From: Nibricoccus sp. | GTDB taxonomy: Bacteria > Verrucomicrobiota > Verrucomicrobiia > Opitutales > Opitutaceae | Direction of reading: 5' to 3' | Assembly: GCA_047602425.1 (NCBI GenBank) | Contig: JASGHG010000001.1 | Location: 224,001-288,000 of the forward strand | Length of the DNA stretch: 64,000 nt | Part shown: one piece after another, positions 1-60,078 of the stretch | Position numbering within the stretch: position 1 is the stretch's first letter | How the letters are laid out: every line of letters begins with the position of its first letter | Program-made: the position numbers and the translations under genes | The notes under the pieces: model-generated | The model's input: the letters and a program-made list of their open reading frames with translations, nothing else | What the model was told of the DNA's origin: nothing | Databases searched by the model: none

Positions 1-1205
1 GCATCGTCCGCCATCTCGACGACCAGTGCATCGGTTGCCAGTACTGCGTGCTCAAGTGCCCGTACGACGTTCCCAAATACAACGACCGTCTCGGCATCGT
101 CCGCAAATGCGACATGTGCCACAACCGCCTCGCCGTCGGTGAAGCTCCGGCCTGCGTGCAGGCCTGCCCCACGCACGCGATCAAGATCGTCACGGTCACG
201 ACGCACGTCAGGACCAACATAAAATTCGATACTTCGAAATTTCTGCCCGGCGCGCCGTCCCCCGACTACACACAGCCCACCACGCGCTACATTTCGAAAA
301 GACCGCTGCCCGCCGAAGTGATTGCCGCCGACGCCGCCACGCTCCGCCCCCAGCATCCGCACTGGCCACTCGTGTTCATGCTCACGTTCATGCCGATGGC
401 GGTCGGTTGCTTTAGTCTCTCTACTTTCTTCCCCGCATGTTCCACTGTGCTCGCGTTAACCGGCTGGCTCGCCGGCGCGGCCGGTCTGTTCACGAGCGTT
501 TTCCATTTGGGCAAGCCGCTCCGCGCCTGGCGCGTTTTCCTCGGCCTGCGCACCTCCTGGCTCTCCCGCGAAGCCGTTATCTTTGGCGCCTGGTTTGGCC
601 TCGCCACCGTCGCCGCCGCACTCTCACTCGCAGCGCTTCTCCCCACTGACACCATCCCAACTTTCGCCGCTCCGATCTACTCGCTCCTCGCTCCCCATTC
701 CGCGCTCCTGACGCTCGTCACAGCCGCCGTCGGCCTCGTCGGCATCTTCTGCTCGTCGATGATCTACATCGATACCCGTCGCGAACTCTGGCGCGCCTCG
801 CAGACGCTTCCGCGTTTCTTCGGCACGGGTCTCGTACTCGGTTTCGCGACACTCGTCGCCGCTTCGCCGACTATCCCGCACATTTTCGTGCTGCTTGCGA
901 CAATCCTTCTCAAGCTCTCCGTCGAGGCCCGCGTCCTGCGGCCGCTCGATGAGGACGACGAGACTCCCACCGCCGCTCGCAAAACCGCGCAGATGCTCGC
1001 CGGTCCACTTCGCGTCGTCCACGGCTTGCGCATCGTCAGCGCCCTTGCCGCTACGCCCCTCGCTTTGCTCGTGAGCTATGGCCAGTTGCCCGCAGTTTTT
1101 TCGTGGGCCATTCTGCCTCTCCTTATCGCCAGCGAATTGGCCGAGCGCTACCTTTACTTCCGTGCCGTCGTCGCCCCCAAAATGCCCGGCGTCATCGCCA
1201 AATAA
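1..1205 (+). CDS. 4Fe-4S dicluster (DmsB/NrfC-like) fused to DmsC/YnfH-family membrane anchor; 5'-truncated by window edge
   Basis: Frame is open from position 3 ([21 protein letters not shown]...KCDMC...PACVQACP). It continues into [20 protein letters not shown]...LRTSWLSRE, multiple TM helices and ELAERYLYF, typical of DmsC anchors. Confidence 0.85.
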
Positions 1206-1221
1206 TTTTCCCTCTCGCACT

Positions 1222-3483
1222 ATGTTCCCCCAGATTGACGACCTTCTTCATGCCCGCCAGGGTCCGATGACGAGCGAGCTCGTGCTTCGTCCCGGCGATT
1301 TCGGCCTCGGTCGCATTCCCGCCCGGCTCAAGCCCGCCGCGACGACCGACATGGTCTGCGGTTTTTGCAGCACCGGTTGTTCGCTCAAGATTCACCTCAA
1401 CGAACGCGGCGAGGCTATCAATCTCACCACCAATCCCAATTATCCCGTCAATCGCGGCATGGCTTGCCCAAAAGGTTGGGAAGCCCTCACGCCGCTCGCC
1501 GCGCCCGACCGCGCCACCACGCCGCTTCTACGAAATCCCGCCACCGGCAAACTCGAACCGGTCGATTGGCCCACCGCCCTCGCCGCGATGGTGAAAAACT
1601 TCAAAGGCATTCAGGAACGTCACGGTAAAACATCCCTCTCCTTCCTCAGCACCGGCCAGATTGTGATGGAGGAAATGGCCCTCCTTGGCGCTCTCGCGAA
1701 GTTCGGCATGGGCATGCTCCACGTCGATTCCAACACGCGTCAGTGCATGGCCACCTCGCACGTTGCCTACAAGCAGTCGTTCGGCTTCGACGCGCCTCCC
1801 TTCACCTACAAAGACTTTGAGGAGAGCGATGCTCTTATCTTTATCGGGGCCAACCCGTGCATCGCCCACCCGATCATGTGGCAGCGCGTGATGATGAACA
1901 AACGCAATCCCGAGATCGTCGTCATCGACCCGCGCCGCACCGAGACGGCCATGGTCGCCAAGATGCACCTGCCAATCAAACCGAAGAGCGACCTCGTTCT
2001 CCTTTACGGTCTCGCGAATCTGCTCATCGAACGCGGCGCGGTGAAACAGGACTTCATTGACGCCCACACAACGAACTTCGCGGAGTTCGCCACCTTCGCG
2101 AGACAGTTCACTTTGGAGCGCACCTCCGCCGAGTCTGGTATCGACGTCGCCACGCTCAAACGTCTCGCCGAGATCATCGCCACGCGCGAACGCGTTTCCT
2201 TTTGGTGGACAATGGGCGTTAACCAGGGCCACGAATCCACCCGCACTGCGCAGGCCATCATTAATCTCGCGCTGATGACCGGCAACATCGGCCGCCCCGG
2301 CACCGGCGCCAACTCCATCACCGGCCAATGCAACGCCATGGGTTCGCGCCTCTTTGGCAACGCCACGTCGTTGCTCGGTGGATACGATTTTACCAAGGCC
2401 GAGCACCGGGCTCATGTCGCCAAAACTCTCGGTATCGACAACGCCCTCATCCCCGACCGTGGCAGCCTCGCCTATGACCAGATCATCGACGGCATCGACA
2501 AGGGCGATATCCGCGGCCTCTGGGTCATCGCCACCAACACCGCCCACTCGTGGGTGAACCAGAAAAAATTTCCCGAGCTGCGCAAAAAACTCGATTTTCT
2601 CGTCGTGCAGGACATGTACACCACGACCGAAACCGCGCGCCTCGCCGACCTCGTCCTACCCGCCGCCGGCTGGGGCGAAAAGGAGGGCGTCCTCATCAAC
2701 TCCGAACGCCGCCTCGGCATCGTGAAAAAAGTTTGCCGTGCACCCGGCCAGGCCCTCAGCGATTTCGCCATCTTCAAACTCGTCGCCGAAGCCTGGGGTT
2801 GCGGCCACCTCTTCAAGAAATGGTCTTCGCCCGAGGCCACGTTTCAGATTCTCAAGGAACTCTCCCGCGGCCAGCCATGCGACTTTACCGGCATCAGCAG
2901 CTACGAACACCTCGACCGCGCCGGCGGCATCCAGTGGCCGTTTACCGACAAAGACGCCATTGCTCCGACGCCCGCCTCCCCGTCTTCAACTTCCACTTCC
3001 ACACCTAAATCAACCTCCGCTCATACCTCGCGGGAGCGGAGGCTCTTCGCCGACGGAAAATTTTTCACGCCCGACCACCGCGCGAAGTTTCTCTTCGATT
3101 CGCCGCGCCCCATGCCCGAGTTGCCCGATGCCGAGTACCCGATGCTCCTCCTCACCGGCCGAGGTTCGTCCGCGCAGTGGCACACCGGCTCGCGCACCGA
3201 CAAAAGCGACGTCCTCCGCAAACTCGCCCCGCGCGAACTCTACGTGGAGATCAATCCCATCGATGCCGACCGCCTTCGAATTTCCCCCAACGAACTGGTT
3301 CGAATCCGGTCCCGTCGCGGCGAAACCGATGCCCTCGCGCTCATCACCAGCACCGTGCAGCCCGGCCAAGTGTACCTGCCGATGCATTTCGACACCGTCA
3401 ACTGCCTGACCTTCCCCGCCTTCGATCCCCACTCCCGGCAGCCCAGTTACAAAGCCTGCGCCGTCAAAGTCACACGCCGATAG
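1222..3483 (+). CDS. nasA: Assimilatory-type (Nas/NarB-like) nitrate reductase catalytic subunit, Mo-bisPGD
   Basis: CGFCSTGC...CPKG 4Fe-4S motif, NTRQCMA Mo-ligand Cys, [39 protein letters not shown]. No Tat signal. ATG at 1222 chosen over the ORF-track start at 1078. Confidence 0.85.
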
Positions 3484-3574: not shown

Positions 3575-4156
3575 TCAGCGGCAATCCTCGGGCGAATTCC
3601 AATTGGCGAAGAAACGACGTTCGGCGGCACTCACGGTGCGCAGCCGCACGAGTTTTTTCTGCTCCAGCTTTCGAACCAATCGTTGCAGCGAAAACTCGCG
3701 GGCCTGGATCGCCGCTATCACTTCCGCCGCCGCTTCTTTTGGGTAAACCGCCGCCAACGGTTCAGCCGAACCATCGATCACCGGGACAATTCCGCAACCA
3801 GATTCTGCGTCTGCCGTAAGGGCACTAAGATAGGCTGGCGTCATCGTCGGCATGTCAACGGCCAGCACAAGGCACAGCGGTAGTTGCAATTCCACGAAAC
3901 AAGCCGCCAGTCCGCCCATCGGCCCACAATCTTTCTGCAGATCCGAAATCTCCCGCGCACCGGGCAAACCGTATTTTTTCCCCGCGCCGACAGACAAAAA
4001 TACGTCGGTCGCGCCAGCTACCCACAATGTCTCGAACGCCCGTTCCAACAACGTGCGTCCGTCCTCCAGCGTCAGCAACGCCTTGTCGCGGCCCATGCGC
4101 GTCGAGCGGCCGCCGGCCATCATGACGCCAGTAAAGGCGATTTTGGCGTCACTCAC
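3575..4156 (-). CDS. mobA: Molybdenum cofactor guanylyltransferase
   Basis: MAGGRSTRMGRDKALL, GPMGGL, LAVDMP, EPLAAVY, FANWNSPED. GTG start at 4156 overlaps the upstream stop. Confidence 0.92.
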   Translation of the reverse strand: MSDAKIAFTGVMMAGGRSTRMGRDKALLTLEDGRTLLERAFETLWVAGATDVFLSVGAGKKYGLPGAREISDLQKDCGPMGGLAACFVELQLPLCLVLAVDMPTMTPAYLSALTADAESGCGIVPVIDGSAEPLAAVYPKEAAAEVIAAIQAREFSLQRLVRKLEQKKLVRLRTVSAAERRFFANWNSPEDCR

Positions 4157-4607
4157 GGCGCAGCACTCCGTCCGTGACGATTTTGCAGCGCAGGCCACCG
4201 CGGCCTTTCAACCACTCCTCGGCGCCAGAACCAACCGCTTGATCCATCCAATGACACGGTTTGCATTCGCCCGTGCCTTCAAGAGTCACGCCTTGCAGTG
4301 AAAATTGTTTCCCGATCAGCGCATCAAGATCAAGTCCCTCGACAACGATGTTCCGGCGCAGTACCGAGGGAGAAAGCTCCGGTTTGCCCTGCGACTGACG
4401 CAGCGCGTCGAACGTTTCCCAGGAAAACAGCGTGAGTTGCCCTTTGTAGTCTTCCTTGAAATCGAAAAATCGGTCCCCGCGGAGCCCGCGTCCCGCAACA
4501 CACTCGACCGAATCGACCTCGACAATGGCGTGCTCGCCCGCCGGCTGGCCGTGATGGCCAAAGTAATTATGACCGGGCGATATGAAGATGTGCCGAATGC
4601 ACGACAT
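4149..4607 (-). CDS. MOSC domain protein (Moco sulfur-carrier-like)
   Basis: GRGLRGDRF, QLTL, LRRNIVVEG, GECKPCHWM, GRGGLRCKI. Start at ATG 4607 (4637 possible). Confidence 0.85.
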   Translation of the reverse strand: MSCIRHIFISPGHNYFGHHGQPAGEHAIVEVDSVECVAGRGLRGDRFFDFKEDYKGQLTLFSWETFDALRQSQGKPELSPSVLRRNIVVEGLDLDALIGKQFSLQGVTLEGTGECKPCHWMDQAVGSGAEEWLKGRGGLRCKIVTDGVLRRE

Positions 4608-4633
4608 GGACCGATAACGTTGTGGGATTTTTC

Positions 4634-4960
4634 TCAACCCGCAACCCCGGAGCCCATCGCTTCATCAAGTGAAATGCGAACCAACCGCACGCCTCCCGAC
4701 GTCGCGAGCAAGGTGTCGCACCATTCCTGGTTTTCGTAACGGTAGCGCACCTGTACGCCGCGAAACGCACCCGATGCAAGCCCTGTCCGAGCCGCCTCAA
4801 GATCGATTCCGCGATCGGACGCATACGCTTGCGGCCCGCCTTTCGGGAGCACTGCGAGAAGCTGCGTGCACTGGGCGAGATCGCGAAAGAGCGCCTCCAG
4901 CGTCGGAGCGTCGAGCACGGTTTGTTGTAGCGCTGGCAACTTCGGCGCGGGCTCAGACAT
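4634..4960 (-). CDS. Hypothetical protein within nap operon
   Basis: 108-aa ORF with strong SD (GGAGGAGG) before ATG 4960. Overlaps the upstream gene's stop and is co-oriented with the operon. Confidence 0.7.
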   Translation of the reverse strand: MSEPAPKLPALQQTVLDAPTLEALFRDLAQCTQLLAVLPKGGPQAYASDRGIDLEAARTGLASGAFRGVQVRYRYENQEWCDTLLATSGGVRLVRISLDEAMGSGVAG

Positions 4961-5393
4961 AGGAACCTCCTCCTCCCGCCAAATGTGGAAATGGCGACGA
5001 CGCACTCGAATTCGAACTATCTACTACCGCCAGTTTCATGCCAGGCGGACGCGGCACGAGTCGAATCGCGTTGTCCGGAGCCGGGCAAACCTCATGGCAA
5101 ACACGACAACCCGTACAAGCATCAGCCACGACACGAGGCAAGCCGTGTTCCATTTTGATCGCTCCATTGACGGGACAGCGCTCGAAGCAAATAGAACAAC
5201 CCGGGCCTTGATATGCCAGGCAGTGCCGACCGGCAATCACCGCAATCTGGGCTCGCGGTTCTGTAACCGTATTTTCACTACTCGATGACTCCGGAACCTT
5301 CGCGTTCGGAATCGCCGCCTGTTGAAAAGGTCGGAAAAACCGACTGAACATTTCGCGACGAGTAAGTGGTTTGCCGTGTTGCTGCGCAGCCAT
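4953..5393 (-). CDS. NapF/NapG-like 4Fe-4S ferredoxin (two clusters)
   Basis: N-terminal TRREMF, CLAYQGPGCSICFERCP and CTGCRVCHEVCP. Start at 5393 or 5423. Confidence 0.8.
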   Translation of the reverse strand: MAAQQHGKPLTRREMFSRFFRPFQQAAIPNAKVPESSSSENTVTEPRAQIAVIAGRHCLAYQGPGCSICFERCPVNGAIKMEHGLPRVVADACTGCRVCHEVCPAPDNAIRLVPRPPGMKLAVVDSSNSSASSPFPHLAGGGGSYV

Positions 5394-5456
5394 GGGCGAA
5401 ACGTGGTCAATTCGGGAGGCCATGCAAATGATACCGGCTGTCCGAGGGCGTTGAGT

Positions 5457-6329
5457 TCAATTGGTGATAGTCGTTTTCCAATCCGCCGCAGGCAATGGAG
5501 GCGGAAGGCCGCTCGCAAGCCGGCTGTCGAGCTCGGCGTTGACCGCATGACATTGTGTGCAGCTCTGCCGGTTCGGATGAGAGGTGCGCAACGCAGCCGT
5601 TCCGCCCGGACCGTGACAGCTCATGCAGTTGTCGCGCATCCAAGTCGTATGCGGCATCGTTGGCGGAGCACCCAAGTAGGCGCGCTTGCCTGGACCGGAC
5701 TGTTCTTTGCCGACAAACTTGTTGCCCTCGGAAAGTGCCTCATGCCGCGCCACCCAAGTACTCGTCGGTCCGACGGAGGAAACATGGCACTGAATGCAAT
5801 TTGTGTACGCCGGATGACTGACCAGCGGCACCTGCTGATTACCGATTTTTGTTGGTTTACCATGGCACTCCATACACGCGGCCGGGGTGAGTTGGTCGAG
5901 TGGGTGCGGCGCAATGGGCGGCGCACCGTCGTACTGGCGGCGGGCGGTGCGCGTGTTTCTGAGTCGGACCAGATCGGTCGTCGAGAGCACGGCCGGGATG
6001 TATTGCGCCTCTGTTTTGGGGCGCGTGAGTGTCGCCAAGTGCACGACCCAGTCCTTGTTCGGGCGGAGCGTGCCGTCCTTAAGATCCGCGTAACGTGGCG
6101 CCACCGGCACGTCCACTTCGGGCAGGGTTGCTTCAGTCGCAACCGGAGTCGCTTTCGCCGTGGATTGCAGCATGTCGGCGGTCGCAAGTTCGGTCTGACG
6201 CAAGCCCATGAAGAATCCGCTCAAGCCGAGCGTCAGCGAGATCAGACTGGCCACAACGGCCAGTTTGCGTCCCGTGCCGGGTTTTGAAGTTTCGGGTTTT
6301 TCGGACATGGCGGTTTCAGACTCAGCCAT
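5457..6329 (-). CDS. napB: NapB-like nitrate reductase cytochrome c subunit with four CxxCH (two tandem NapB-like diheme units) and an N-terminal TM helix
   Basis: APPIAPH..CMECH..SHP..NCIQCH and APPTMPH..NCMSCH..SHP..SCTQCH. Directly downstream of napA. Confidence 0.8.
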   Translation of the reverse strand: MAESETAMSEKPETSKPGTGRKLAVVASLISLTLGLSGFFMGLRQTELATADMLQSTAKATPVATEATLPEVDVPVAPRYADLKDGTLRPNKDWVVHLATLTRPKTEAQYIPAVLSTTDLVRLRNTRTARRQYDGAPPIAPHPLDQLTPAACMECHGKPTKIGNQQVPLVSHPAYTNCIQCHVSSVGPTSTWVARHEALSEGNKFVGKEQSGPGKRAYLGAPPTMPHTTWMRDNCMSCHGPGGTAALRTSHPNRQSCTQCHAVNAELDSRLASGLPPPLPAADWKTTITN

Positions 6330-8757
6330 GAGGAACTGTCTTCTCTGGAACCAGCATGGCGGCCGACTTGCGGTAAACTTTCACGGCGCACTTTTTGTAG
6401 TCTGGTTCTTTGGAGATCGGACATGGTTCACCCAGAGTGACGTCGTTGATCAGCAGGCGCTCATCGAAGAACGGCACAAACACCGTGCCGCGCGGCGGCT
6501 TGGCGCGGCCATTGATCCAGACGGGCAATTCGATCTTGCCGCGACGCGATTCGATCACGGCCATGTCGCCGTTTCCGAGTCCGGCGGCAGCAGCGTCCTG
6601 TGGGTTCATTTCCACATAGGCGTTGGGCATGGCGTTGCGCAACTGGGGCACGCGCATCGTCAACGTGCCGGTGTGCCAATGTTCAAGTACGCGCCCGGTG
6701 CAAAGCCACGTTGGGAAATTCGGATCGGGTTCTTCCGCAGCCGGCTCATAGGGACAAAACCAAATGAGCGCTTTGTCGTCCTTGGTCACCGAATGATAGA
6801 ATTGGATTCCCTTGCCCTTGGCCACAAAGGGGTCGGTCCCTTCGGTGAAACGGAACTTGGTTTCATTCCACGAACCATCCGCCCCCTGCACCACCGGCCA
6901 GCGCAAACCGCGGGCCTTCGCGAGCACGTCGTACGGCGCAAGATGCTTGTGCTTGTAGAAGGAGAAAAGACGGTATTCCTCGTAGAGCGCCTTGTCGACG
7001 TTCACGTCGTAGTAGTGCGAAAAATCCCAAGCCGGCACTTCCGCGCCTTTATCATCTTTGACGGTGAAGATAAAATTGCCGTCGCGATCCTTCATGCCGG
7101 GATGGCCCAGTTCGAAGAGTCGGCGCGCCACCGCGATCGTGATCCACGCATCGGGACGGGCCTGGCCGGGAGGTTCAACCTGTTTGAACCATTGCTGCGT
7201 GCGGCGTTCCGAATTTCCGTAGATGCCGTTTTTTTCCACCCACAGCGCGGCCGGCAAAACGAGATCGGCCAGTTCGGTCGTCGCCGTCGGATAGACTTCC
7301 GAAACGATGAGAAATTTGTCCTCCAAGCCCTGCTTCGCTTTAAAAAGTTTGTGGAGATTCGGGAGCGATTGCCCGGGATTTGTCACCTGAACGATGACCG
7401 TATGGATGTCGCCGCCTTTGTCGGTCGGCGTGCAGAATTTTTCGAACAATTGCACCGTATGATAACCGGGCTTCGGATTGATGCGGCCTTCCGGAAGTTT
7501 CCAGATTTCCTCCGATTCCTTGCGGTGCTCCGCGTTGGCAACAAGACGTCCGCCGGGAAGAAAATGGCACATCGTGCCCACTTCGCGCGCCGTACCGCAG
7601 GCAGACGGTTGCCCCGTGAGCGATGTCGGGGCGTCGCCCGGCCGGCCAAAATGGCCGCTGAGCAAATGAATCGAGTGTACCAGGCGGTTGATCGCCGTGC
7701 CCCGCGTATGCTGGTTCATGCCCATGCACCAAAGGCTGGTGATGCGAATGTCGCGCCTGGCGAAAAGTTCGCCCAACATGCGAATCTTCGCGGCGGAAAC
7801 GCCGGAAATTTTTTCCACAAACTCCGGCGTGTATTCCTCGACCGCCTTCCGATATTCGTCGAACGAAATTGGCTTGCCGAGCAGATCGAGCGGTTTGTTG
7901 TCGCCGCGGAAATTGCAGTATTTTTCGACAAAGGCTTTGTCCCACGCGTCGTTTTTCAGGAGCAGGTGCGCAATGCCATTCGCGATCGCCATGTCACTCT
8001 GCGGACGAAATTCCAGGTACTCGTCTGCAAACTCCGTCGAGCGCGTGCGTCGCGTGCCGATATCGATGATTTGTACCTTCTGCCCTCTGGTTAGGCGATC
8101 GATGATGCGTGAAAACAACACCGGATGCATCTCGGCTGGATTGTTGCCCCACAGAATGATCACGTCCGCCGCATCGAGGTCGTCGTAACAACCGGCCGGT
8201 TCATCCACGCCGTAAACCGAAAGATAACCCGTGACCGCCGAAGCCATGCAAAGGCGCGCATTTGGTTCAATATGATTGTTAGCCAAGCCACCCTTCATGA
8301 ATTTCTGCGCCGCATAACCCTCCGGAATCGTCCACTGGCCGCTGCCGTAAAAGGCGAAGCCTTTCGGATCCTTCAGCACGCGTTTCGCGATGGTGTCGAT
8401 GGCCTCCTCCCACGAAATTGGCTCTAGCTGACCGTTGCGGCGCAACATCGGCGTGGTCAGGCGATCTTTGCCGTAAAGGATGCCACCGACGTGGTAGCCC
8501 TTCACGCAGAGAAGGCCCTTGTTCACCTCCGCGAGCTGCTCGCCCTGAATTGCGACAACACGACCGTCCTTCACGCCTACGCGCACGTGGCAGCCCGTGC
8601 CGCAGAAACGGCAAGGGGCCTTGTCCCACTTGATCCCATCGGGCGTAGTGGTAGCGGGAGCGGAAATACTTTCAACAGCGCCGAGACGCTGGGCGATCAC
8701 CGCGGTGGCGGCGGCCATGGCGGTGTTACGAAGAAATTCGCGTCGATCCATATTCAT
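6322..8757 (-). CDS. napA: Periplasmic nitrate reductase catalytic subunit
   Basis: Tat signal DRREFLR, APCRFCGTGC, ARLCMASAV, SLTGQPSACGTAREVG (NapA signature), TGRVLEHWHTG, ISKEPDYKKCAV. ATG 8757 overlaps the napD stop (ATGA). Confidence 0.95.
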   Translation of the reverse strand: MNMDRREFLRNTAMAAATAVIAQRLGAVESISAPATTTPDGIKWDKAPCRFCGTGCHVRVGVKDGRVVAIQGEQLAEVNKGLLCVKGYHVGGILYGKDRLTTPMLRRNGQLEPISWEEAIDTIAKRVLKDPKGFAFYGSGQWTIPEGYAAQKFMKGGLANNHIEPNARLCMASAVTGYLSVYGVDEPAGCYDDLDAADVIILWGNNPAEMHPVLFSRIIDRLTRGQKVQIIDIGTRRTRSTEFADEYLEFRPQSDMAIANGIAHLLLKNDAWDKAFVEKYCNFRGDNKPLDLLGKPISFDEYRKAVEEYTPEFVEKISGVSAAKIRMLGELFARRDIRITSLWCMGMNQHTRGTAINRLVHSIHLLSGHFGRPGDAPTSLTGQPSACGTAREVGTMCHFLPGGRLVANAEHRKESEEIWKLPEGRINPKPGYHTVQLFEKFCTPTDKGGDIHTVIVQVTNPGQSLPNLHKLFKAKQGLEDKFLIVSEVYPTATTELADLVLPAALWVEKNGIYGNSERRTQQWFKQVEPPGQARPDAWITIAVARRLFELGHPGMKDRDGNFIFTVKDDKGAEVPAWDFSHYYDVNVDKALYEEYRLFSFYKHKHLAPYDVLAKARGLRWPVVQGADGSWNETKFRFTEGTDPFVAKGKGIQFYHSVTKDDKALIWFCPYEPAAEEPDPNFPTWLCTGRVLEHWHTGTLTMRVPQLRNAMPNAYVEMNPQDAAAAGLGNGDMAVIESRRGKIELPVWINGRAKPPRGTVFVPFFDERLLINDVTLGEPCPISKEPDYKKCAVKVYRKSAAMLVPEKTVPHG

Positions 8758-9059
8758 TTTAAAGGGGTCTCTTGAGAAAAATCTCCAGAACATGTTTCCG
8801 CCGCTGCCTCCGGGACAACCTCAACAAAGGTCACATCGACAAAGGCCACACCCGGCAGCGTTTCCAGCCAGGCATGCACTTCGCGAGGGGAACCAGTTTC
8901 AACCACCACGGGCAGCCAGGGACCAAACGCTTCGCCGACCTCAATCTCCGGGCGTGATCGCAAAGCCTCATATACCTCCTCCTGCAATTGAAGCTCATCG
9001 CGCATACGGATCACCAAACTGACAACGACAGGGGTCTGGGGTGTTTCCAACGGGGTCAT
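8754..9059 (-). CDS. napD: NapD-family Tat proofreading chaperone
   Basis: About 100 aa, SLVI...PEIEV...LPVVVET...LPGVAFVDVTF. Immediately upstream of napA. Confidence 0.75.
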   Translation of the reverse strand: MTPLETPQTPVVVSLVIRMRDELQLQEEVYEALRSRPEIEVGEAFGPWLPVVVETGSPREVHAWLETLPGVAFVDVTFVEVVPEAAAETCSGDFSQETPLK

Positions 9060-9090
9060 GACACGACGGTGAATTGAAAAATCGCCCTAC

Positions 9091-9118
9091 TCAAGATTAA
9101 ACTACCGTTTTATCTTGA
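9091..9118. promoter_or_regulatory. 12-4-12 inverted repeat, candidate Rrf2-family operator in the divergent promoter
   Basis: TCAAGATTAAAC-TACC-GTTTTATCTTGA, 11/12 arm match, in the 93-bp gap between divergent napD and cytochrome genes. Confidence 0.7.
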
Positions 9119-9152
9119 TTTATTCGCCAAAGCTTTCGATGCTTTCCGCGCT

Positions 9153-9803
9153 TTGAAGGCCCCACGGATCATTCCTCCCCTACTGGTGCTTGCCGCTGCA
9201 TCCACCGCTCTAGCCTTGTGGCTCCGCGGAACGCCGCCGGCTCCCGCTCCTACTGCTGCCGCCCCTTCCTCCGGCGCGAGCGCCATCGTTCGTCATGCGG
9301 TGACGATCAAGCCCGGCCCCGCTACACCAGTCGTACTCACCAATGCGCTCAACCGCGCCGGCGACCCCGTTCCTGTTTCGTGCTCCACCTGCCATTCCAC
9401 GCGCACGCCAAATGTCGAACGTCGTTCCGCTGCCGAACTCACCGAGTTCCACCAAGGACTCGCTTACAAGCATGGCGATCTTTCCTGCCTTTCCTGTCAC
9501 AATTCCGCCAACTACGATACGCTGCGCAAAGCGGATGCCACGTCCATTCCCTACCCCAATGTCATGGAGCTTTGCGGCCAATGCCACGGCCCGCAGCTTC
9601 GCGATTACCGGGCCGGTGCACATGGCGGCATGAACGGCCATTGGGACCTGACCAAGGGTCCACGGGTACGAAACAACTGTGTCGATTGCCACGATCCCCA
9701 TGCTCCCGCCTATGCCCGCGTAAAACCGGTCTTCGCTCCGGTTGATCGTGGCGCACGCCAGCAAGAACAGCGCGCGGCCAAACATGAGCAAGCCCATGAG
9801 TGA
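9153..9803 (+). CDS. Tetraheme c-type cytochrome with N-terminal signal/anchor
   Basis: CSTCH, CLSCH, CGQCH, CVDCH; hydrophobic N-terminus. Confidence 0.85.
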   Translation: MKAPRIIPPLLVLAAASTALALWLRGTPPAPAPTAAAPSSGASAIVRHAVTIKPGPATPVVLTNALNRAGDPVPVSCSTCHSTRTPNVERRSAAELTEFHQGLAYKHGDLSCLSCHNSANYDTLRKADATSIPYPNVMELCGQCHGPQLRDYRAGAHGGMNGHWDLTKGPRVRNNCVDCHDPHAPAYARVKPVFAPVDRGARQQEQRAAKHEQAHE

Positions 9804-10740
9804 GCAAAACCAATTCTCTTCGCCAAACAACGACGCTCCGGGAGGGATGTCCCGCCGCACCGCGTTGAAAATCGCCGGCGCGACACTCGGCGCCGCCGCC
9901 TTCGCCAAGGCCGTTGCTCCCATTACACAGTGGGCCGCCGACCAGTCGGTCGATGAGTTTCTCCAAAAACACTACCGCGAACTTTCGCCCGACGACATGG
10001 CCAGAGTCATCGAGCGTTTGGAGAAAGAAACCAAGGAAGATTACGGTGCGGACGTACACATTTCCGATCCCAAGCCCCAGCCCGGCGTCAAATTTGGCTA
10101 TGCGCTCAATTTGTCGATTTGCGTCGGTTGTCGTCGCTGTGCCGAGGCCTGCCACAAGGAAAACAATCACGACCGGCCTTCCGGCAACTCGTACATTCGC
10201 GTGCTCGAAATGCAAAAGGGCACCATCGACCTCGAACAGGGCAATGCCACTTACAAGCACGCCGTTCCCGACCCACAAAAATATTACATGCCCGTGCAGT
10301 GCCAGCAATGCGACAATCCTCCGTGTGTGCATGTCTGTCCGGTCGAAGCCACTTGGAAGGAAAAAGACGGCATCGTGGTCGTCGATTACAACTGGTGCAT
10401 CGGCTGCCGCTATTGCGAGGCCGCATGTCCTTATCACGCCCGGCGCTTCAATTGGACCAAGCCGCAGGTTCCGACCGAGGAGATCACGCCCGTGCAGGCC
10501 TATCTATCGAATCGCATGCGTCCTCAGGGGGTGATGGAGAAATGCACATTCTGTCTGCATCGCACGCGTGAAGGCCGGCTGCCCGCCTGTCTTGAGGCCT
10601 GCCCGACCGGCGCCCGCGTTTTTGGCAATCTTCTCGATCCGAATTCCGAAATTCGCTGGGTCCTCGCCAATAAGCGCGTCTTCGTTCTCAAGGAGGAACT
10701 CGGGACCAAGCCGAGCTTCTTCTACTTCTTCGACAAATAA
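9796..10740 (+). CDS. NrfC/DsrO-like four-cluster 4Fe-4S protein with Tat signal
   Basis: SRRTALK Tat motif; CVGCRRCAEAC, CQQCDNPPCVHVCP, CIGCRYCEAACP, KCTFC..PACLEACP. Confidence 0.9.
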   Translation: MSEQNQFSSPNNDAPGGMSRRTALKIAGATLGAAAFAKAVAPITQWAADQSVDEFLQKHYRELSPDDMARVIERLEKETKEDYGADVHISDPKPQPGVKFGYALNLSICVGCRRCAEACHKENNHDRPSGNSYIRVLEMQKGTIDLEQGNATYKHAVPDPQKYYMPVQCQQCDNPPCVHVCPVEATWKEKDGIVVVDYNWCIGCRYCEAACPYHARRFNWTKPQVPTEEITPVQAYLSNRMRPQGVMEKCTFCLHRTREGRLPACLEACPTGARVFGNLLDPNSEIRWVLANKRVFVLKEELGTKPSFFYFFDK

Positions 10741-10769
10741 ACCGCGCCGCTCCCCTTCCACCTCCGTTG

Positions 10770-12038
10770 ATGCCCGCCCAATCATCCATTTCCCGACCGC
10801 GTTTCGAACCCGATCCAACTCGCGGGCATTTCTCCAACTATGTCCGTTTCCTCTGGCGCGCAGTTGTGGACGCCACGGATGGAAACGGCTGGTTTTATGC
10901 GTGGATGACCTTGCTCTCCGCGGTTGCGCTCGTCGGCCTCAGTGCATGGGCCACACAAATCCGCCATGGCATGGCGGTCACCGCGATGACCGACCACGTT
11001 TCTTGGGGTCTCTACATCGCCAATTTTACCTTCATGGTCGGGCTTGCGGCTGGCGGTGTGATGATGGTTATACCCGCGTATCTCTATCACGACGACGAGA
11101 TGCACGACGTCGTCATCGTCGGTGAAATGCTCGCGATTGCCGCCATCGCCATGTGCATCGCCTTCGTCGTTGTCGACCTCGGCCGACCCGATCGTGCCTG
11201 GCATTTGATCCCTGGCATCGGTGTTTTCCACTGGCCGATGTCGATGCTCACTTGGGACGTACTCGTGCTTAACGGTTACCTCGTCATCAACCTGCATATC
11301 TGCGGCTACCTGCTTTATATGCGCTTTATCGGGCAGCGTCCCAACCCGCGCTGGTACGTGCCGTTTGTTTTCATCTCCATCGTCTGGGCGATCTCCATTC
11401 ACACCGTCACCGCGTTTCTCTACTGTGGTCTTGGCGGCCGGCCATTTTGGAACACCGCGCTTCTCGCGCCGCGCTTTCTCGCCTCCGCTTTCGTCTCCGG
11501 CCCGGCCTTTATCATCGTCGGTCTGCAAATTCTCCGCCGTGTCGCCAACGTCCGGATCGGCGACCGCCCGCTGTCTATTTTGACCAACATCATGCGGGTC
11601 ACGATCCTCATCAACCTGCTCATGGTCGCTTCCGAAGTGTTCACCGAATTTTACAGCGGCACGAGCCACACCTCTGCGGCACGGTATCTTTATTTCGGGC
11701 TGCACGGCGCCCACGGGCTGGTGCCTTGGATCTGGACGTCGGTTGTGTTCGGTGTCGTTTCCGCGATTTTGCTGCTGCGGCCCGGCGTGGTTGCCCACAA
11801 AACCCAACTCACGATTGCCTGCGTGTTGTCGTTTGTCGCTGTTTGGATCGAAAAAGGCATGGGCCTGATCATCCCCGGCTTCATTCCATCGACGTTGCAC
11901 GAGATCGTCGAATATTCGCCCAGTCTCGTCGAATGGCAGATCATGGCCGGCATCTGGGCCATGGGCCTGCTCATCTACACAGTGGCGTTGAAGATCGGTC
12001 TGCCGGTCTTGACGACACCCCATACTACCAAACACTGA
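10770..12038 (+). CDS. NrfD/PsrC/DsrP-family membrane quinol-interacting subunit
   Basis: TAMTDHVSWGLYIANFTFMVGLAAG, VDLGRPDR, SMLTWD, SIHTVTAFL, RPFWNTALLAPRFLASAF; about 10 TM segments. Confidence 0.9.
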   Translation: MPAQSSISRPRFEPDPTRGHFSNYVRFLWRAVVDATDGNGWFYAWMTLLSAVALVGLSAWATQIRHGMAVTAMTDHVSWGLYIANFTFMVGLAAGGVMMVIPAYLYHDDEMHDVVIVGEMLAIAAIAMCIAFVVVDLGRPDRAWHLIPGIGVFHWPMSMLTWDVLVLNGYLVINLHICGYLLYMRFIGQRPNPRWYVPFVFISIVWAISIHTVTAFLYCGLGGRPFWNTALLAPRFLASAFVSGPAFIIVGLQILRRVANVRIGDRPLSILTNIMRVTILINLLMVASEVFTEFYSGTSHTSAARYLYFGLHGAHGLVPWIWTSVVFGVVSAILLLRPGVVAHKTQLTIACVLSFVAVWIEKGMGLIIPGFIPSTLHEIVEYSPSLVEWQIMAGIWAMGLLIYTVALKIGLPVLTTPHTTKH

Positions 12039-12045
12039 GCCCATC

Positions 12046-12459
12046 ATGCTTCGCTGTGGAAAAACCGCCCAGACCGCCATCGCCGCCATGAGCGCGCTTG
12101 CCGAACGCTATGACGCCGGCAAAACCGTCCTCAGCTCGCTCGACATCGCCAAAGACCGCAACCTTCCCCAACCGCTTATCGCGAAACTGCTCACCACGCT
12201 CTCCACCGGCGGACTCGTCGATGGTACCCGCGGCCCTGGCGGTGGCTACTGGCTTGCCAAAGCGCCTTCCCGCATTTCCCTCGCCGACATCGCCGAGCTT
12301 TTTGAAAAAGAGTCCGAGGGGATCATGTGCCCGTTCGGCCCCGATTGGTGCGGCAAGGGCGAGCCCTGTCCGCTTCACAACGAACTCGTCGCCATGAACG
12401 AGCAGTGGGAAACCTTCATGCGTAAAACCACGCTGGCCGTCTTTTCGGCAAAAAAATAG
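12046..12459 (+). CDS. Rrf2-family transcriptional regulator, probably Fe-S binding
   Basis: wHTH with LVDGTRGPGGGYWLAK..ISLADI; C-X6-C-X5-C-X2-H near the C-terminus. Confidence 0.92.
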   Translation: MLRCGKTAQTAIAAMSALAERYDAGKTVLSSLDIAKDRNLPQPLIAKLLTTLSTGGLVDGTRGPGGGYWLAKAPSRISLADIAELFEKESEGIMCPFGPDWCGKGEPCPLHNELVAMNEQWETFMRKTTLAVFSAKK

Positions 12460-12514: not shown

Positions 12515-12751
12515 ATGCGCATCCTCTTTTTCGGACAACTTAAAACCATCACCGGTCAGCCGGAGATCCAGTTGTCCTTCGCCGCGGGAAACGCAGAAGA
12601 CCTGTGGCAGCGGCTACTCGCTTTACATCCCGGCCTCGCCACGGTCCGCAAACAGGTCCGACTCGCACAAAACGGCGAATTTGCCACAGCCTCCGCCCGT
12701 TTCTCCGACGCCGACGAGATTGCCCTGATTCCGCCTGTATCCGGAGGTTGA
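12515..12751 (+). CDS. moaD: Molybdopterin synthase sulfur carrier subunit
   Basis: MRILFFGQLK...DEIALIPPVSGG, C-terminal GG. Confidence 0.93.
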   Translation: MRILFFGQLKTITGQPEIQLSFAAGNAEDLWQRLLALHPGLATVRKQVRLAQNGEFATASARFSDADEIALIPPVSGG

Positions 12752-12753
12752 AT

Positions 12754-14376
12754 ATGGAGATCGATATCGCCATTTCCTCCGCCTGCCTCGATCAACACCC
12801 GCTGCTTTCCGACCGCGTAACCGACCAAACGGGCGCCGTCGCCGAGTTCAAGGGCTTGGTCCGTCGCGAGGAAGCAGGCCAACCGATCGCCGCACTTGAA
12901 TACGAGGCCTACCAACCGATGGCTGAAAATACAATGCGACGCATCGTCGAAGATCTCGGCAAAACTCATTCCTGCGACCGCGTCGTAATCGTCCATCGCG
13001 TCGGCATGGTGCCCGTGGGCGAAGCCGCGATTATCGTTCGCGTCTGCTCGAAACACCGCGCCGAGGCTTTCGCGCTACTGAGCAGTTTTATGGATCGGCT
13101 CAAACAGGACGTACCGATCTGGAAACTCCGCGGCGTGCCGGCAGAACAGAAAAACGACCCAGTCACCAGCAGCAAAAATCCGCCCGGCTTCAATGAAATC
13201 CTTGCCACCGTCGAAGCCGCCTGCAAACCGCTCGCGACGGAACGTGTTTCGCTCCAGCACGCGGTTGGTCGAATCCTCCGTGAGACCATAACCGCACCGG
13301 AGGACCAACCCGCCTTTGCTCGCTCTGCGGTCGATGGCATCGCTATACGGCTGGACGACTCGTCCGACACTTTCACCGTCGTCGGCGAAATTCGCGCCGG
13401 AGACTGGCATCCGCGCCAACTTCAACCCGGTGAAGCCGTGCGCATCTCCACCGGCGGCGCCCTGCCTTCCGAGGGACTTCAGGTCGTGATGATCGAAGAC
13501 GTTGAGTTTAATGGCAATCGTTGCCGGCTTCTGCGCCGAAACACCGATACCTACGTTCGCGCGCGCGGCGAGGATGTGAAATGCGGCGAAATGCTCCTCG
13601 CCCCCGGCAAGTCTCTCACTCCCGGGGCAATTTCGCTCCTCGCCGGAATCGGCGCCACCGAACCACTCGTCACCCGCACGATCCAAATCGTCCATTTCAC
13701 CACGGGCGACGAGATCGTTTCTCCCGAGCGCCAGCCAGGCCCCGGCCAGATTCGCGATTCCAATTCCCCGCTCGTTCATGCTTTCTTTGCGCAACCAGGT
13801 CTGTGCGCCAAACATCACCATTTGCCCGAAAAATTCAACGAGGCCAAAGCTACGCTCGCCCGGCACGCCACTGAAATTGCCGCCGCCGACATTCTGATTT
13901 TTTCCGGCGGAGCCAGCGTTGGGGCGCACGATCATACACCACAACTGCTCGCTGAACTCGGCTTCGAGCTGAAAATCCACGGTACCCGCCTGCGCCCGGG
14001 CAAACCCATGCTTTTTGCGACCTTCGGGCAGCGTCTCGCTTTTGGTCTGCCGGGCAATCCCCTCGCCCACTTCGTCGGCCTTTTTAGTTTCGTCCGCGCC
14101 GCTGTTGCCCGTCTCAGTGGCGTGGCGGCTCCCACCCTTCAGCACGCAACGCTCTCTTCCGCCCTGGCGGCCGGCGGCAATCCCCGTGAAACCCTCTGGC
14201 CCGCCTTGCTCACTCTCAGTCAAGGCAGCCTGACAGCCGAACCTCTCCGTTGGAGTAATTCCGGTGACCTGGCCGCCCTCTCGCGGGCCAATGGTTTAAT
14301 CCTCGTGCCACCTGGCACCGGCTTGCTCGAACGCCATTCCACAATTAACGTCCTGCCGTGTTCCTCGATCCTTTGA
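12754..14376 (+). CDS. MoaE (molybdopterin synthase catalytic subunit)-MoeA (molybdopterin molybdotransferase) fusion
   Basis: N-terminal MoaE motifs GAVAEFKGLVR, LEYEAY, HRVG, HRAEAF, LKQDVPIWK. MoeA motifs follow with no stop: PAFARSAVDG, TGDEI, IRDSN, SGGASVG, PGKP, GLPGNP. Confidence 0.88.
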   Translation: MEIDIAISSACLDQHPLLSDRVTDQTGAVAEFKGLVRREEAGQPIAALEYEAYQPMAENTMRRIVEDLGKTHSCDRVVIVHRVGMVPVGEAAIIVRVCSKHRAEAFALLSSFMDRLKQDVPIWKLRGVPAEQKNDPVTSSKNPPGFNEILATVEAACKPLATERVSLQHAVGRILRETITAPEDQPAFARSAVDGIAIRLDDSSDTFTVVGEIRAGDWHPRQLQPGEAVRISTGGALPSEGLQVVMIEDVEFNGNRCRLLRRNTDTYVRARGEDVKCGEMLLAPGKSLTPGAISLLAGIGATEPLVTRTIQIVHFTTGDEIVSPERQPGPGQIRDSNSPLVHAFFAQPGLCAKHHHLPEKFNEAKATLARHATEIAAADILIFSGGASVGAHDHTPQLLAELGFELKIHGTRLRPGKPMLFATFGQRLAFGLPGNPLAHFVGLFSFVRAAVARLSGVAAPTLQHATLSSALAAGGNPRETLWPALLTLSQGSLTAEPLRWSNSGDLAALSRANGLILVPPGTGLLERHSTINVLPCSSIL

Positions 14377-14846
14377 AAAGCAAGCGTCCCTCGTCCGCCC
14401 GCGCCAAACTTTCGCACCTCGACGCTGAGGGAAATGCGCGTATGGTCGCCGTCGGTGCGAAGCCTGTTCAACATCGCCTCGCCGTGGCGCAGGGACGCCT
14501 CGTTTGTTCCCCCGACACTTTGCGCCTCCTCAAACGCAAGGCCTTGCCCAAAGGCGACGTTCTCACCGTCGCGCAAATCGCCGGCGTCCAGGCCGCCAAG
14601 GCCACCGCGACCCTCATTCCGCTTTGCCATCCGCTGCCACTCAGTCACGTCGAAATTAATTTCACCGTTCGCCGCGCCAGCATCGAAATTATCTGCAAAG
14701 TCGAAACCCACGCGCAAACCGGCGTCGAAATGGAGGCACTCACCGGCGTCTCAGTCGCGGCCCTCACGCTCTACGATATGTGCAAGGCAGTAGACAAATC
14801 GATGTCGATCGACGACGTTCGCGTGGTTCAAAAGATCAAAAAATGA
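14358..14846 (+). CDS. moaC: Cyclic pyranopterin monophosphate synthase
   Basis: LSHLD..GNARMV, KGDVL, LIPLCHP, TGVEMEALT, YDMCKAVD. Confidence 0.95.
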   Translation: MFLDPLKSKRPSSARAKLSHLDAEGNARMVAVGAKPVQHRLAVAQGRLVCSPDTLRLLKRKALPKGDVLTVAQIAGVQAAKATATLIPLCHPLPLSHVEINFTVRRASIEIICKVETHAQTGVEMEALTGVSVAALTLYDMCKAVDKSMSIDDVRVVQKIKK

Positions 14847-15355: not shown

Positions 15356-16330
15356 ATGGACGCCCACGGCCGCATCGTCGATTATCTGCGCATCTCGGTC
15401 ACCGACCGGTGCAACGAGCGCTGCACCTATTGCATGCCCGAGGGCTACAAAGGCTGGGAACAAAAACCCGATCACCTCACCGCCGACGAAATCGTGCGCG
15501 TGGTGCGGGTGGCCGCTGGTTTGGGTTTTCGCAAATTTCGTCTGACCGGCGGCGAACCGCTCGTCCGTCGCGATCTCGTCGACATTGTTCGCACCATTTC
15601 GGCCATCGAAGGTGTCGAGGCCATTGGACTTTCCACCAATGGCACGAAGCTCGCCGCCCACGCCGAGCCCTTGCGAGCCGCCGGTTTGCGCACGGTCAAC
15701 GTCAGCCTCGATGCACTCGATCCGGCCCTTTATCGCCGCGTCACGGGTGGAGATGTTAACGCCGTGATCTCCGGCATCCGCGCCGCGGTGGCCGCGGGTT
15801 TCGAGCGCGTGAAGCTCAATTGCGTGCTCATGCGCGGCGTGAACGAAAACGAACTCTGGCCGCTCACACAATTCGCCGCCGAGCACAATTTGCCTCTGCG
15901 CCTCATCGAACTCATGCCGCTTACCCGCACCGACGTGCTGAGCGATGCCAACTTCATGCCCGTCGGCGAGGCCATGAAATTGCTCTCGCAACACGACGAA
16001 CTGGTTCCACAGCAAGACGCCCGCATCGGGTGGGGCCCGGCAAAATACTATCAGCTCAAAAACAGCGGCGCGCTCGTCGGCTTCATCGGAGCGCTGACGA
16101 ATCTGCATTTCTGCGAGACCTGCAATAAAATGCGCCTCACCGCCGACGGCAAAATCCGGCCCTGCCTTGGCGATCAAGGCGAGTTCGACCTCCGCACCGC
16201 TCTGCGCAATTCCACCTCCGACGACGCCCTGCGCGCGGCCTTCCTCACCGCATTGGAACGCAAACCGCTCGAACACCAATTCCGCAGCAACTACACCCCC
16301 TGCCGCCCAATGACGGCCATTGGTGGTTAA
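15356..16330 (+). CDS. moaA: GTP 3',8-cyclase (radical SAM)
   Basis: YLRISVTDRCNERCTYCMP, RLTGGEP, FCETCNKMRLTADG..RPCL, C-terminal IGG. Confidence 0.96.
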   Translation: MDAHGRIVDYLRISVTDRCNERCTYCMPEGYKGWEQKPDHLTADEIVRVVRVAAGLGFRKFRLTGGEPLVRRDLVDIVRTISAIEGVEAIGLSTNGTKLAAHAEPLRAAGLRTVNVSLDALDPALYRRVTGGDVNAVISGIRAAVAAGFERVKLNCVLMRGVNENELWPLTQFAAEHNLPLRLIELMPLTRTDVLSDANFMPVGEAMKLLSQHDELVPQQDARIGWGPAKYYQLKNSGALVGFIGALTNLHFCETCNKMRLTADGKIRPCLGDQGEFDLRTALRNSTSDDALRAAFLTALERKPLEHQFRSNYTPCRPMTAIGG

Positions 16331-44921: not shown

Positions 44922-44944
44922 CATGAAAGGAGAGTATCCATATT

Positions 44945-46411: not shown

Positions 46412-46423
46412 CTCGGCTCAAAA

Positions 46424-47602: not shown

Positions 47603-47611
47603 TTTTTCGCC

Positions 47612-48808: not shown

Positions 48809-48822
48809 CCAATCCGTTGCCT

Positions 48823-54614: not shown

Positions 54615-55444
54615 TGTCGGCCTACCGTCGAATTTTAGTCATCACACCGACCTTGGCAGAGTCTCCGTTCCTGGATGCAACCGTAAAGTCGGTTTCCACC
54701 CAACTGGTGGACGTTCTCCATGTGCTTTCCGCACCGGCCGGCAAAGTGCAGGCATTGCGTGCGAGATATCCCAACCTCCAGGTGGTGCCCGATGCCGGCA
54801 AAGCCGGAGGAATCTATGGAGCCCTCAATGCCGCACTTGGTTCCGTTTCTGGCGATTGGGACTGGTTCACCTACATCAATGACGACGATCTTCTGCTGCC
54901 CGGTTTCAGCGAGGCGGTCTATCGTCATCTCGTTTCGGGCGCTCCGGGATCGGTAATCTACGGCGACGTCGCCATGATCGATGAAGAGGGCCGGCCTATT
55001 TCCATGATCACTGTGGAACGCAACCCCGCGTGGATTCCCGCCTTGCTGAAACAGGGCATCAGCCCGCTCATGCAGCAAGGCATGCTCTTCCGACGCGAAA
55101 CGGTGATGGAACTGGAAGGTTTTGACCTGCGCTACCGACTTTGCGCCGACCTTGATTTTTGGCTCCGAGCTTTGGTTTCAGGCGCAATTTTCCGCTACTA
55201 TCCGCTCAAAGTGGCGCAATTCCGTCTTCGCAGCGGGCAACTCTCGGGCAACACCGAGCTTACCATACGCGAGCAGGATGAGATCGTGAAACAGCATCTG
55301 CCTGGCACATATTCCTACCTGCAAAAACTGGCTGCGCGCTGGCAATACCGGGCCAGCAATCTGCCGCGCTACCTGGCCAGGCTGCGCACGCACGGCTTTC
55401 GGACGAGTTATCAACTGCTCGAGAGCAAGCCGAAAACATCATGA
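54614..55444 (+). CDS. GT2 glycosyltransferase
   Basis: VITPT, GIYGALN, YINDDDLL, IYGD, FD..YRLCADLDFWLR. Confidence 0.88.
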   Translation: MSAYRRILVITPTLAESPFLDATVKSVSTQLVDVLHVLSAPAGKVQALRARYPNLQVVPDAGKAGGIYGALNAALGSVSGDWDWFTYINDDDLLLPGFSEAVYRHLVSGAPGSVIYGDVAMIDEEGRPISMITVERNPAWIPALLKQGISPLMQQGMLFRRETVMELEGFDLRYRLCADLDFWLRALVSGAIFRYYPLKVAQFRLRSGQLSGNTELTIREQDEIVKQHLPGTYSYLQKLAARWQYRASNLPRYLARLRTHGFRTSYQLLESKPKTS

Positions 55445-57913: not shown

Positions 57914-57931
57914 CAAAGGCGCGCGGCTAAA

Positions 57932-58576: not shown

Positions 58577-58586
58577 TCCTGATCGT

Positions 58587-59897: not shown

Positions 59898-60078
59898 AGG
59901 CTTTGCTTTTGAAGATTATTACTGCACCGCCCGGCTCGGATCCCCGCGTGATCCTTCGCCGAAAAATGCACCACTTTATAGTTCGCTCCTTGGATACCGC
60001 CGTTGCTCCATGGTTCCGCGAAAAGTCCAGTTTTCGCATTCCAAGGAGGAGAGGATCCGGGGGTGGCGACGGTGTGCA

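Follow-up and report, generated by a model that had tools for sequence, protein, structure and literature searches.

In the genome of a Nibricoccus sp. (Opitutaceae, Verrucomicrobiota), the genes for a periplasmic nitrate reductase (Nap) are separated by exactly 93 bp (9060..9152) from a divergently oriented operon for a tetrahaem cytochrome c, a four-cluster iron-sulfur protein of the NrfC/DsrO type, and a membrane subunit of the NrfD/DsrP type (hereafter, the trio). Both operons lie in a stretch of 64,000 nucleotides (the window; G000:C1:224001-288000, from a one-contig genome of 5.16 Mb that is 99.97% complete), to which all coordinates refer unless stated otherwise. Textbook Nap systems receive their electrons through NapC or NapGH, in a step that is usually counted as not conserving energy. 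Here, the trio is likely the quinol dehydrogenase of Nap, in place of NapC or NapGH; on the comparative sequence evidence laid out below, we assign this reading a probability of roughly 75%. The arrangement itself is a real, conserved variant of Nap. A listing of open reading frames (ORFs), together with Pfam and NCBIfam scans of the window proteins, found all genes named in an earlier note on this DNA where it had placed them. In agreement with the claim made there that the trio has no catalytic subunit of its own, the scans detected neither a molybdopterin subunit nor any catalytic or donor-binding subunit in the plus-strand operon.

Relatives of the NrfD-like protein were sought in one genome per GTDB species, which yielded 440 loci encoding one. 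The best 80 of these (66-95% identity) were taken with flanks of up to 10 kb per side and were probed by tblastn with the window proteins, NapA being counted at >55% identity. In 70 of the 80 loci, NapA was encoded at a distance of 0.27-7.2 kb (median 2.1 kb) to the NrfD-like gene, a pairing far beyond chance, and 57 loci held all five of NapA, tandem NapB, cytochrome, NrfC, and NrfD; for 9 of the 80, the flanks were too short for judging NapA. The linkage was kept irrespective of whether the genes were arranged divergently (66 of the NapA loci) or all in one direction (the remaining four), which argues for the trio being the quinol dehydrogenase of Nap. In a quick tree (with Shimodaira-Hasegawa approximate likelihood ratio test, SH-aLRT) of 79 loci, which was used for counting phyla only, 49 loci were from Verrucomicrobiota, 21 from Planctomycetota, 3 from Myxococcota, 2 from Pseudomonadota (both on contigs <5 kb), and 1 from Methylomirabilota, with 3 unclassified. 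Cultured carriers among the loci are Pelagicoccus mobilis KCTC 13126, Aeoliella straminimaris ICT_H6.2, Aeoliella sp. SH292, and Planctomycetota strain ZRK32.

The second sample comprised 301 evenly drawn Verrucomicrobiota genomes. NapA (E ≤ 1e-100) was found in five of them, and in all five the NrfD-like gene lay ∼2-4 kb from napA; neither NapC nor NapH exceeded its cut-off in any of these five, which again argues for the trio taking their place. Two of them (G024 and G138) gave no NapC/NrfH-like match whatever at E ≤ 1e-3, and because NrfA was not found in G138, the trio of that genome cannot serve Nrf. A genome of the same genus as the window (G168) contained neither NapA nor the NrfD-like module. 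The co-occurrence of the trio with napA, which the earlier note had proposed to examine, thus held in several phyla and in both samples.

In genome-wide searches, neither NapC nor NapH came above its cut-off. The NapC/NirT model TIGR02161 reached at best 26.9 bits (cut-off, 310.6), and this match was nrfH; the best score for NapH was 49 (cut-off, 213.05). Nothing matched cytochrome b at E ≤ 0.001 in the genome, which takes a bc/Qcr route out of consideration and is a further argument for the trio, and nothing matched NarG at E ≤ 1e-10, which leaves Nap as the sole dissimilatory nitrate reductase found. The search for nrfH, also suggested earlier, did return one true copy (TIGR03153, 167 versus a cut-off of 134.2), but at 2.99 Mb, immediately ahead of nrfA and 2.76 Mb from nap. 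This nrfA appears to be split (L001:1973-2386 and 2164-3213; G000:C1 ∼2989950): the signal-anchor part ends with NPAKW, and the mature part, beginning GQNFPRQYDSY, is in a different frame, the switch coinciding with a short G run. Either the assembly contains an indel here or the frameshift is real, and in the latter case, NrfA would be without an export signal. Two further candidate routes from the quinol pool are encoded elsewhere. One is a complete alternative complex III (ACIII; actABCDEF at C1:3260431-3268460), adjoining genes for a cbb3 oxidase. The other is a 497-amino acid (aa) membrane protein with six CXXCH motifs and a weak NrfH-like domain (42.1 versus 134.2; G000:C1:2333140-2334633), adjoining a gene for a 940-aa membrane protein. 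G168, a genome without Nap and without the trio, encodes a 78% identical copy of this hexahaem protein, and no copy was found in the four other Nap-bearing genomes, a distribution that favors the trio as the partner of Nap.

The first gene of the trio (9153..9803, plus strand; PF14522, PF09699, and PF14537) encodes a tetrahaem cytochrome c of 216 aa with an N-terminal hydrophobic helix. All four CXXCH motifs, as well as H100, H107, H157, and H183, are invariant in 50 orthologues. Its score against the NapC/NirT family PF03264 (23.1) is under the cut-off of 24.1, and hhalign with the NrfH of the same genome gave only a weak, local match (probability 65%, 37 columns), so that membership of the NapC/NirT family was rejected. 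Database names of homologues of this cytochrome are uninformative or wrong. The second gene (9742..10740, plus strand, with a likely start at 9784-9796; PF13247) encodes an NrfC/DsrO-like protein of 332 aa with a twin-arginine motif (SRRTALK), predicting export by the twin-arginine translocation (Tat) system, and with four cysteine clusters. It scored 193.1 with the DsrO model, just below the cut-off of 200, and its nearest matches in the PDB were PsrB (2vpw_B, E 3.9e-38) and the iron-sulfur domain of ActB.

The third gene (10767..12038, plus strand; PF03916, 119 bits versus 25.8) encodes the NrfD/DsrP-like membrane subunit of 423 aa with ∼10 helices, which clears the NCBIfam cut-off for DsrP (428.1 versus 350) and has ActC of ACIII as its nearest match in the PDB (6f0k_C, E 1.7e-6). 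Mean column identity among 49 orthologues is 68%, and D137, S159, and K363 are invariant; in the alignment with ActC, they correspond to H139, S164, and R395, respectively. According to the accessible part of a review on NrfD proteins (PMC8076601), ActC His139 and DsrP1 Asp106 mark the position of quinol protonation, ActC Ser164 is likewise tied to quinol chemistry, and ActC Arg395 and DsrP1 Lys329 mark a proposed proton gate. Conservation of D137 and S159 therefore points to a quinone site in the membrane subunit and argues for a role of the trio as quinol dehydrogenase. Energy conservation by the module would be speculation founded on one conserved lysine at the gate position of that review.

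On the minus strand, the nap operon begins with a napD-like chaperone gene (8754..9059; 101 aa). Its product had no match in the Pfam or NCBIfam scans, and a profile of 35 orthologues had two NapD structures as its top two PDB matches, both weak (2jsx, E 0.0089; 2pq4, E 0.017); the gene is present in 52 of the 70 NapA-bearing loci. It is followed by napA for the catalytic subunit (6322..8793, an ORF of 823 aa; PF04879, PF00384, and PF01568), the likely start of which is the methionine before DRREFLR at ∼8757, preserving the Tat motif RREFLR. The closest PDB entries are NapA proteins of the heterodimeric NapAB type (3ml1_A, E 1.2e-220; 2nya_A; 1ogy_A), aligned over residues 53-807. The scores remain just below the equivalog cut-offs of NCBIfam (NF010055, 901.6 versus 904; TIGR01706, 866.1 versus 930.55), which is the near miss of a divergent clade.

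Canonical NapB is a small, soluble dihaem subunit. The NapB of the window (5457..6329, minus strand; PF03892, 34.1 versus a cut-off of 25.1) differs in being 290 aa long, in having a duplicated domain and four CXXCH motifs, and in carrying a membrane helix. The three top PDB matches of a profile of 49 orthologues are all NapB (E 9e-7 to 3e-6). In this alignment, the two repeats follow the pattern R(R)AYDGAPPxxPH..CxxCH..SH..CxQCH, with all four CXXCH invariant. Hydropathy indicates a single helix (residues 23-41), to which the AlphaFold2 (AF2) model assigns a block-mean predicted local distance difference test (pLDDT) of 95-97 over residues 21-40; the model is poor elsewhere (mean over the whole chain, 64.3). 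The helix has the consensus SGFFMGLRQT, in which G38 and G42, forming a GxxxG motif, are invariant in the 49 orthologues, in contrast to the hydrophobic N-terminus of the trio cytochrome, the sequence of which is not conserved. Such conservation of an anchor suggests a specific membrane partner, and NapAB may be docked on the membrane module instead of being free to diffuse. The gene set designated napDAB in the earlier note was correct, but its NapB is an anchored tandem tetrahaem protein instead of a soluble dihaem one, and a napF-like gene, a conserved gene termed hyp123, a gene for a MOSC-domain protein, and mobA follow it.

The 93-bp gap, from which both operons start, contains a promoter-like element on the plus strand (TTGAAA-18-TAAACT; 9074..9103) and, overlapping it, the palindrome CAAGATTAAACTACCGTTTTATCTTG (9092..9117), a predicted operator for an Rrf2-family regulator. 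The gene for such a regulator (12046..12459, plus strand; PF02082, 90.4 versus 30) begins 7 nt after that of the NrfD-like protein; the earlier note correctly had molybdenum cofactor (Moco) genes follow the trio but overlooked this intervening gene. In 39 aligned regulators (that of the window and 38 orthologues), C95 and C102 are conserved in 39 of 39, and C108 and H111 in 97%, a spacing we take to be that of Fe-S-binding Rrf2 proteins. An NsrR-like pattern, AAGAT-N12-16-ATCTT, was present in only 5 of 65 intergenic regions and was replaced by one derived from the sequences, CAAGA-N16-TCTTG, which was sought with at most one mismatch in the 400 nt preceding the cytochrome gene. This pattern was present in 36 of the 37 loci in which an Rrf2 gene directly follows the NrfD-like gene, compared with 1 of 33 loci without Rrf2 gene and 1 of 3 where the contig ends too early; the background was 88 of 5000 random 430-nt windows from the same loci. 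Loci with both palindrome and Rrf2 gene include Verrucomicrobiota as well as Planctomycetota. Such a palindrome ahead of the cytochrome gene, accompanying the Rrf2 gene from locus to locus, is new in this analysis. The contrast between loci suggests joint regulation, although, since related genomes are not independent, it is not statistical proof. In the whole genome, the pattern has five exact matches, of which only the one at nap has an AT-rich palindromic core, and a wider regulon was not seen among these five sites. Co-occurrence of palindrome and regulator, together with the paucity of exact matches, leads to the prediction that the Rrf2 protein is a local regulator controlling both operons jointly from the shared gap. 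A shared operator would also be in keeping with the trio serving Nap. The complete nap-trio-Rrf2 cluster is present on each of two contigs of one Opitutaceae metagenome-assembled genome (MAG; loci L020 and L021, the NrfD-like proteins of which share 86% and 84% identity with that of the window), so that either the island is duplicated or the bin is mixed.

Taken as the quinol dehydrogenase of Nap, the trio would oxidise menaquinol at a periplasm-side site of the NrfD-like subunit (Asp137 and Ser159). The electrons would pass from there through the Tat-exported iron-sulfur protein with its four clusters to the four presumably bis-His-ligated haems of the trio cytochrome, and via the four haems of the anchored tandem NapB to NapA, which would reduce nitrate to nitrite. 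The Fe-S Rrf2 protein, co-transcribed with the trio, would bind CAAGA-N16-TCTTG in the 93-bp gap and control both operons. The electron-transfer steps, the protein contacts, the direction of flow, the binding of the regulator, and any translocation of protons are all what we infer from the genes and their conservation. A bolder version, which appears rather unlikely as a whole, has NapAB fixed via its GxxxG anchor to the DsrP-like NrfD module in a tethered supercomplex that translocates protons. Such a proton-motive quinol:nitrate oxidoreductase would be the periplasm-facing counterpart of NarGHI, under the control of an Fe-S Rrf2 sensor of its own. As neither NarG nor cytochrome b was found in the genome, energy gain from nitrate would here depend on proton translocation by the module. 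Electrogenic respiration with Nap has a precedent in Campylobacter, where, according to the accessible part of the report, Nap is fed via Qcr (PMC6195509).

With the canonical Nap systems, which have either NapC (napEDABC type) or NapGH (napAGHBFLD type), the cluster shares a NapA of the NapAB type, a partner with NapB domains, a NapD-like chaperone, a NapF-like ferredoxin, and the presumed path from quinol to periplasmic nitrate. It departs from them in that NapC and NapH do not exceed their cut-offs, in that NapB is a tandem and anchored, and in that the predicted quinol site resides in a cofactor-less protein of the NrfD type. NrfBCD of Escherichia coli, as described in the part of the NrfD review at hand (PMC8076601), is likewise composed of a multihaem cytochrome, a Tat-exported four-cluster protein, and NrfD, with the periplasmic nitrogen-oxide reductase being a separate entity. 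In contrast to NrfBCD, the cytochrome of the window has four haems instead of five, the membrane subunit is DsrP-like with ∼10 helices instead of an eight-helix NrfD, and the client would be NapAB instead of NrfA. The E. coli-type models were not reached, either (NrfB NF008659, 24.5 versus 184; NrfC TIGR03149, 130.9 versus 377.6; NrfD likewise).

Closer in architecture are two systems proposed to act as quinol-to-periplasm oxidoreductases: Cbc4 of Geobacter sulfurreducens (CbcS/CbcT/CbcU; bioRxiv 10.1101/2025.04.14.648717) and the DsrOhPh-tetrahaem locus of cable bacteria (PMC13047784). Compared solely by the architecture given in the accessible parts of these papers, both share with the trio an anchored bis-His tetrahaem cytochrome, a protein with four [4Fe-4S] clusters, and an integral membrane subunit. 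This combination, which has no catalytic subunit, argues for an analogous function of the trio; unlike the trio, neither system is tied to Nap in those parts. The DsrJOP/Qrc-like designation of the earlier note was apt insofar as the membrane subunit passes the DsrP cut-off, and Lys363 also takes the place of DsrP1 Lys329, as in DsrMKJOP. However, the cytochrome has four haems versus the three of DsrJ, it had no match to DsrJ, the context is nap, and dsrA was not found genome-wide (best score 30.6 versus a cut-off of 392.85). The haem number and the lack of dsrA argue against a Dsr complex (DsrM and DsrK were not searched). ACIII, too, is a quinol:periplasmic acceptor oxidoreductase, and its ActC is the structure nearest to the membrane subunit, but the cluster of the window is without the molybdopterin-like domain of ActB and without ActD, ActE, and ActF; in the quick tree, ActC and ActF are on very long branches from the clade of the NrfD-like proteins of the trio.

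A cluster of the type MHC-4Fe4S-NrfD-actD has been reported downstream of nap in two MAGs of Planctomycetota, with an iron-dependent transcriptional regulator listed among the nearby genes of interest in the legend of Figure 6 (PMC10732223). The accessible text of this paper goes no further than concluding that the cluster may take part in respiratory electron transfer; it neither proposes a quinol dehydrogenase for Nap nor surveys the distribution, and it does not mention NapC/NapGH, a tandem NapB, or an operator. The term "Nap" occurs nowhere in the NrfD review (PMC8076601). A full-text literature search, which did not cover subscription journals, found no paper in which this module is put forward as the quinol dehydrogenase of Nap.

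Several observations weigh against the trio being the dedicated electron donor of Nap. One locus (L039) is without NapA although its flanks extend for at least 9 kb to either side of the module, and in two others (L038 and L041), ∼5 kb separate napD from the cytochrome gene. Because of kinship among the genomes, the counts given above exceed the number of independent events. NapB, being anchored in the membrane and having four haems, could in principle receive its electrons otherwise, and the genome holds other quinol-linked candidates, namely ACIII, NrfH beside nrfA, and the hexahaem NrfH-like protein. Finally, six further sampled genomes encode NrfD-like proteins of 41-64% identity without having NapA, and trios of 44-58% identity adjoin multihaem cytochromes, again without NapA, in G237, G117, and G158. 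In these last loci (L099, L101, and L102, respectively), the adjoining cytochromes have 6, 7, 11, and 13 haems. The NrfD-like frame is longer than that of the window in G117, G285, and G291 (582-614 aa).

Such NapA-less paralogues imply that the type of module is general, the Nap-linked form being a conserved subfamily. They would also fit a general quinol:periplasmic-cytochrome oxidoreductase resembling Cbc4, of which Nap is but one client, with adjacency being due to co-inheritance on a mobile nitrate island. The patchy spread of the cluster, which is absent even from G168 of the same genus, would suit an accessory island, and the quick tree splits the Opitutaceae sequences between two clades. 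We nevertheless consider this explanation improbable, given that the Nap-linked clade is highly conserved (mean column identity of the NrfD-like protein, 68%), that the trio stays beside napA in two gene orders, that a predicted Rrf2 operator is situated in the shared gap, and that the anchor helix of NapB is itself conserved.

A different role for the trio would result if the tandem NapB were itself the quinol dehydrogenase, as an analogue of NapC, and if the trio had some other task, for instance that of supplying the quinone pool with electrons taken from a donor in the periplasm, in the manner of Qrc. NapB indeed combines a membrane helix with four haems, a number equal to that of NapC/NrfH, and it produced a weak match with NrfH (20.6 bits versus a cut-off of 134.2). 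However, the first CXXCH (residue 152) is ∼100 residues away from the helix (23-41), the two halves resemble NapB rather than NapC, and the trio is without a catalytic or donor-binding subunit of its own; we consider this reading still less probable. Least likely is that ACIII, NrfH, or the hexahaem NrfH-like protein feeds Nap and that the neighboring trio is functionally unrelated: although all three proteins are encoded in the genome, G024 and G138 encode Nap and the trio but gave no NapC/NrfH-like match at E ≤ 1e-3, the hexahaem protein occurs in a Nap-less genome and in none of the other four with Nap, ACIII adjoins cbb3 genes, and the synteny counts would be left unexplained.

Given these considerations, the proposal of the earlier note that the module is an alternative quinol dehydrogenase for Nap appears well supported by the comparative evidence, and its interpretation as a whole partly so. 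If the trio does fulfil this function, it would constitute a third, NrfD-type input into Nap and alter the interpretation of nap genes in metagenomes. This input would then be the only route in the sampled NapA-bearing Verrucomicrobiota and common in Planctomycetota and Myxococcota. Annotation pipelines that require napC/napGH would misjudge organisms carrying nap and the trio, and automatically assigned names, such as "DsrP" for the membrane subunit and "nitrite reductase c552 subunit" for the cytochrome, would mislead. Should the supercomplex with proton translocation exist as well, nitrate respiration with Nap alone would be energy-conserving in bacteria of the Planctomycetota-Verrucomicrobiota-Chlamydiota (PVC) group and in Myxococcota.

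Downstream of napB on the minus strand lies a gene for a NapF/NapG-like ferredoxin of 156 aa (4953..5423), assigned by Fer4 families and having two four-cysteine motifs for two [4Fe-4S] clusters. Its N-terminus carries TRREMFSRF, the NapG model was not reached (39.9 versus a cut-off of 269), and the gene is present in 51 of the 70 NapA-bearing loci. The conserved gene hyp123 (4634..5005, minus strand, with a likely start at ∼4960) follows napF in most loci. It is present in 54 of the 70 and had no family match in the Pfam and NCBIfam scans; Q84, Y87, W94, D96, and R109 are invariant. The AF2 model predicts an alpha/beta fold (pLDDT 87.2), for which Foldseek retrieved nothing from the PDB at E ≤ 1e-3 and a wide search with VIA-align returned a top Z of 6.8, within the common range. 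In several Planctomycetota loci (L053, L070, L079, L081, and L092), a NapF-like gene was not detected and the hyp123 frame is longer; in all of these except L053, it opens with an RRxWFRL-like motif, as if the N-terminus of NapF had been taken over. The operon continues with the gene for the MOSC-domain protein (4149..4637, minus strand; PF03473), present in 14 of the 70 NapA-bearing loci, and with mobA for Moco guanylyltransferase (3575..4198, minus strand; PF12804), which is matched by MobA models below their cut-offs.

The very start of the window (3-3483, plus strand) encodes an Fe-S protein, the frame of which extends past the window start, followed by a second molybdoenzyme of 801 aa, of the NasA/Fdh-alpha type. 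A 611-aa frame with a weak sulfite/nitrite reductase-like match is located just upstream (upstream region, C1:221249-221632). These matches give the neighborhood the appearance of a cluster for nitrate assimilation adjacent to nap. A gene for this 801-aa type of molybdoenzyme is also found near nap in L019, L023, L024, and L027. On the other side of nap, the Rrf2 gene is followed on the plus strand by a moaE-moeA fusion in a single frame of 590 aa (12604..14376), moaC (14358..14846), and moaA (15356..16330). Serpins are uncommon in bacteria, and a full-length one (PF00079, E 6e-97) is encoded directly after these Moco genes (16341-17612, minus strand). Farther downstream, the region 42720-62254 harbors a long polysaccharide cluster with genes for a Wzz/GNVR protein, a sugar transferase, several GT4 and GT2 glycosyltransferases, a Wzy-like protein, a MatE-like flippase, and an acyltransferase.

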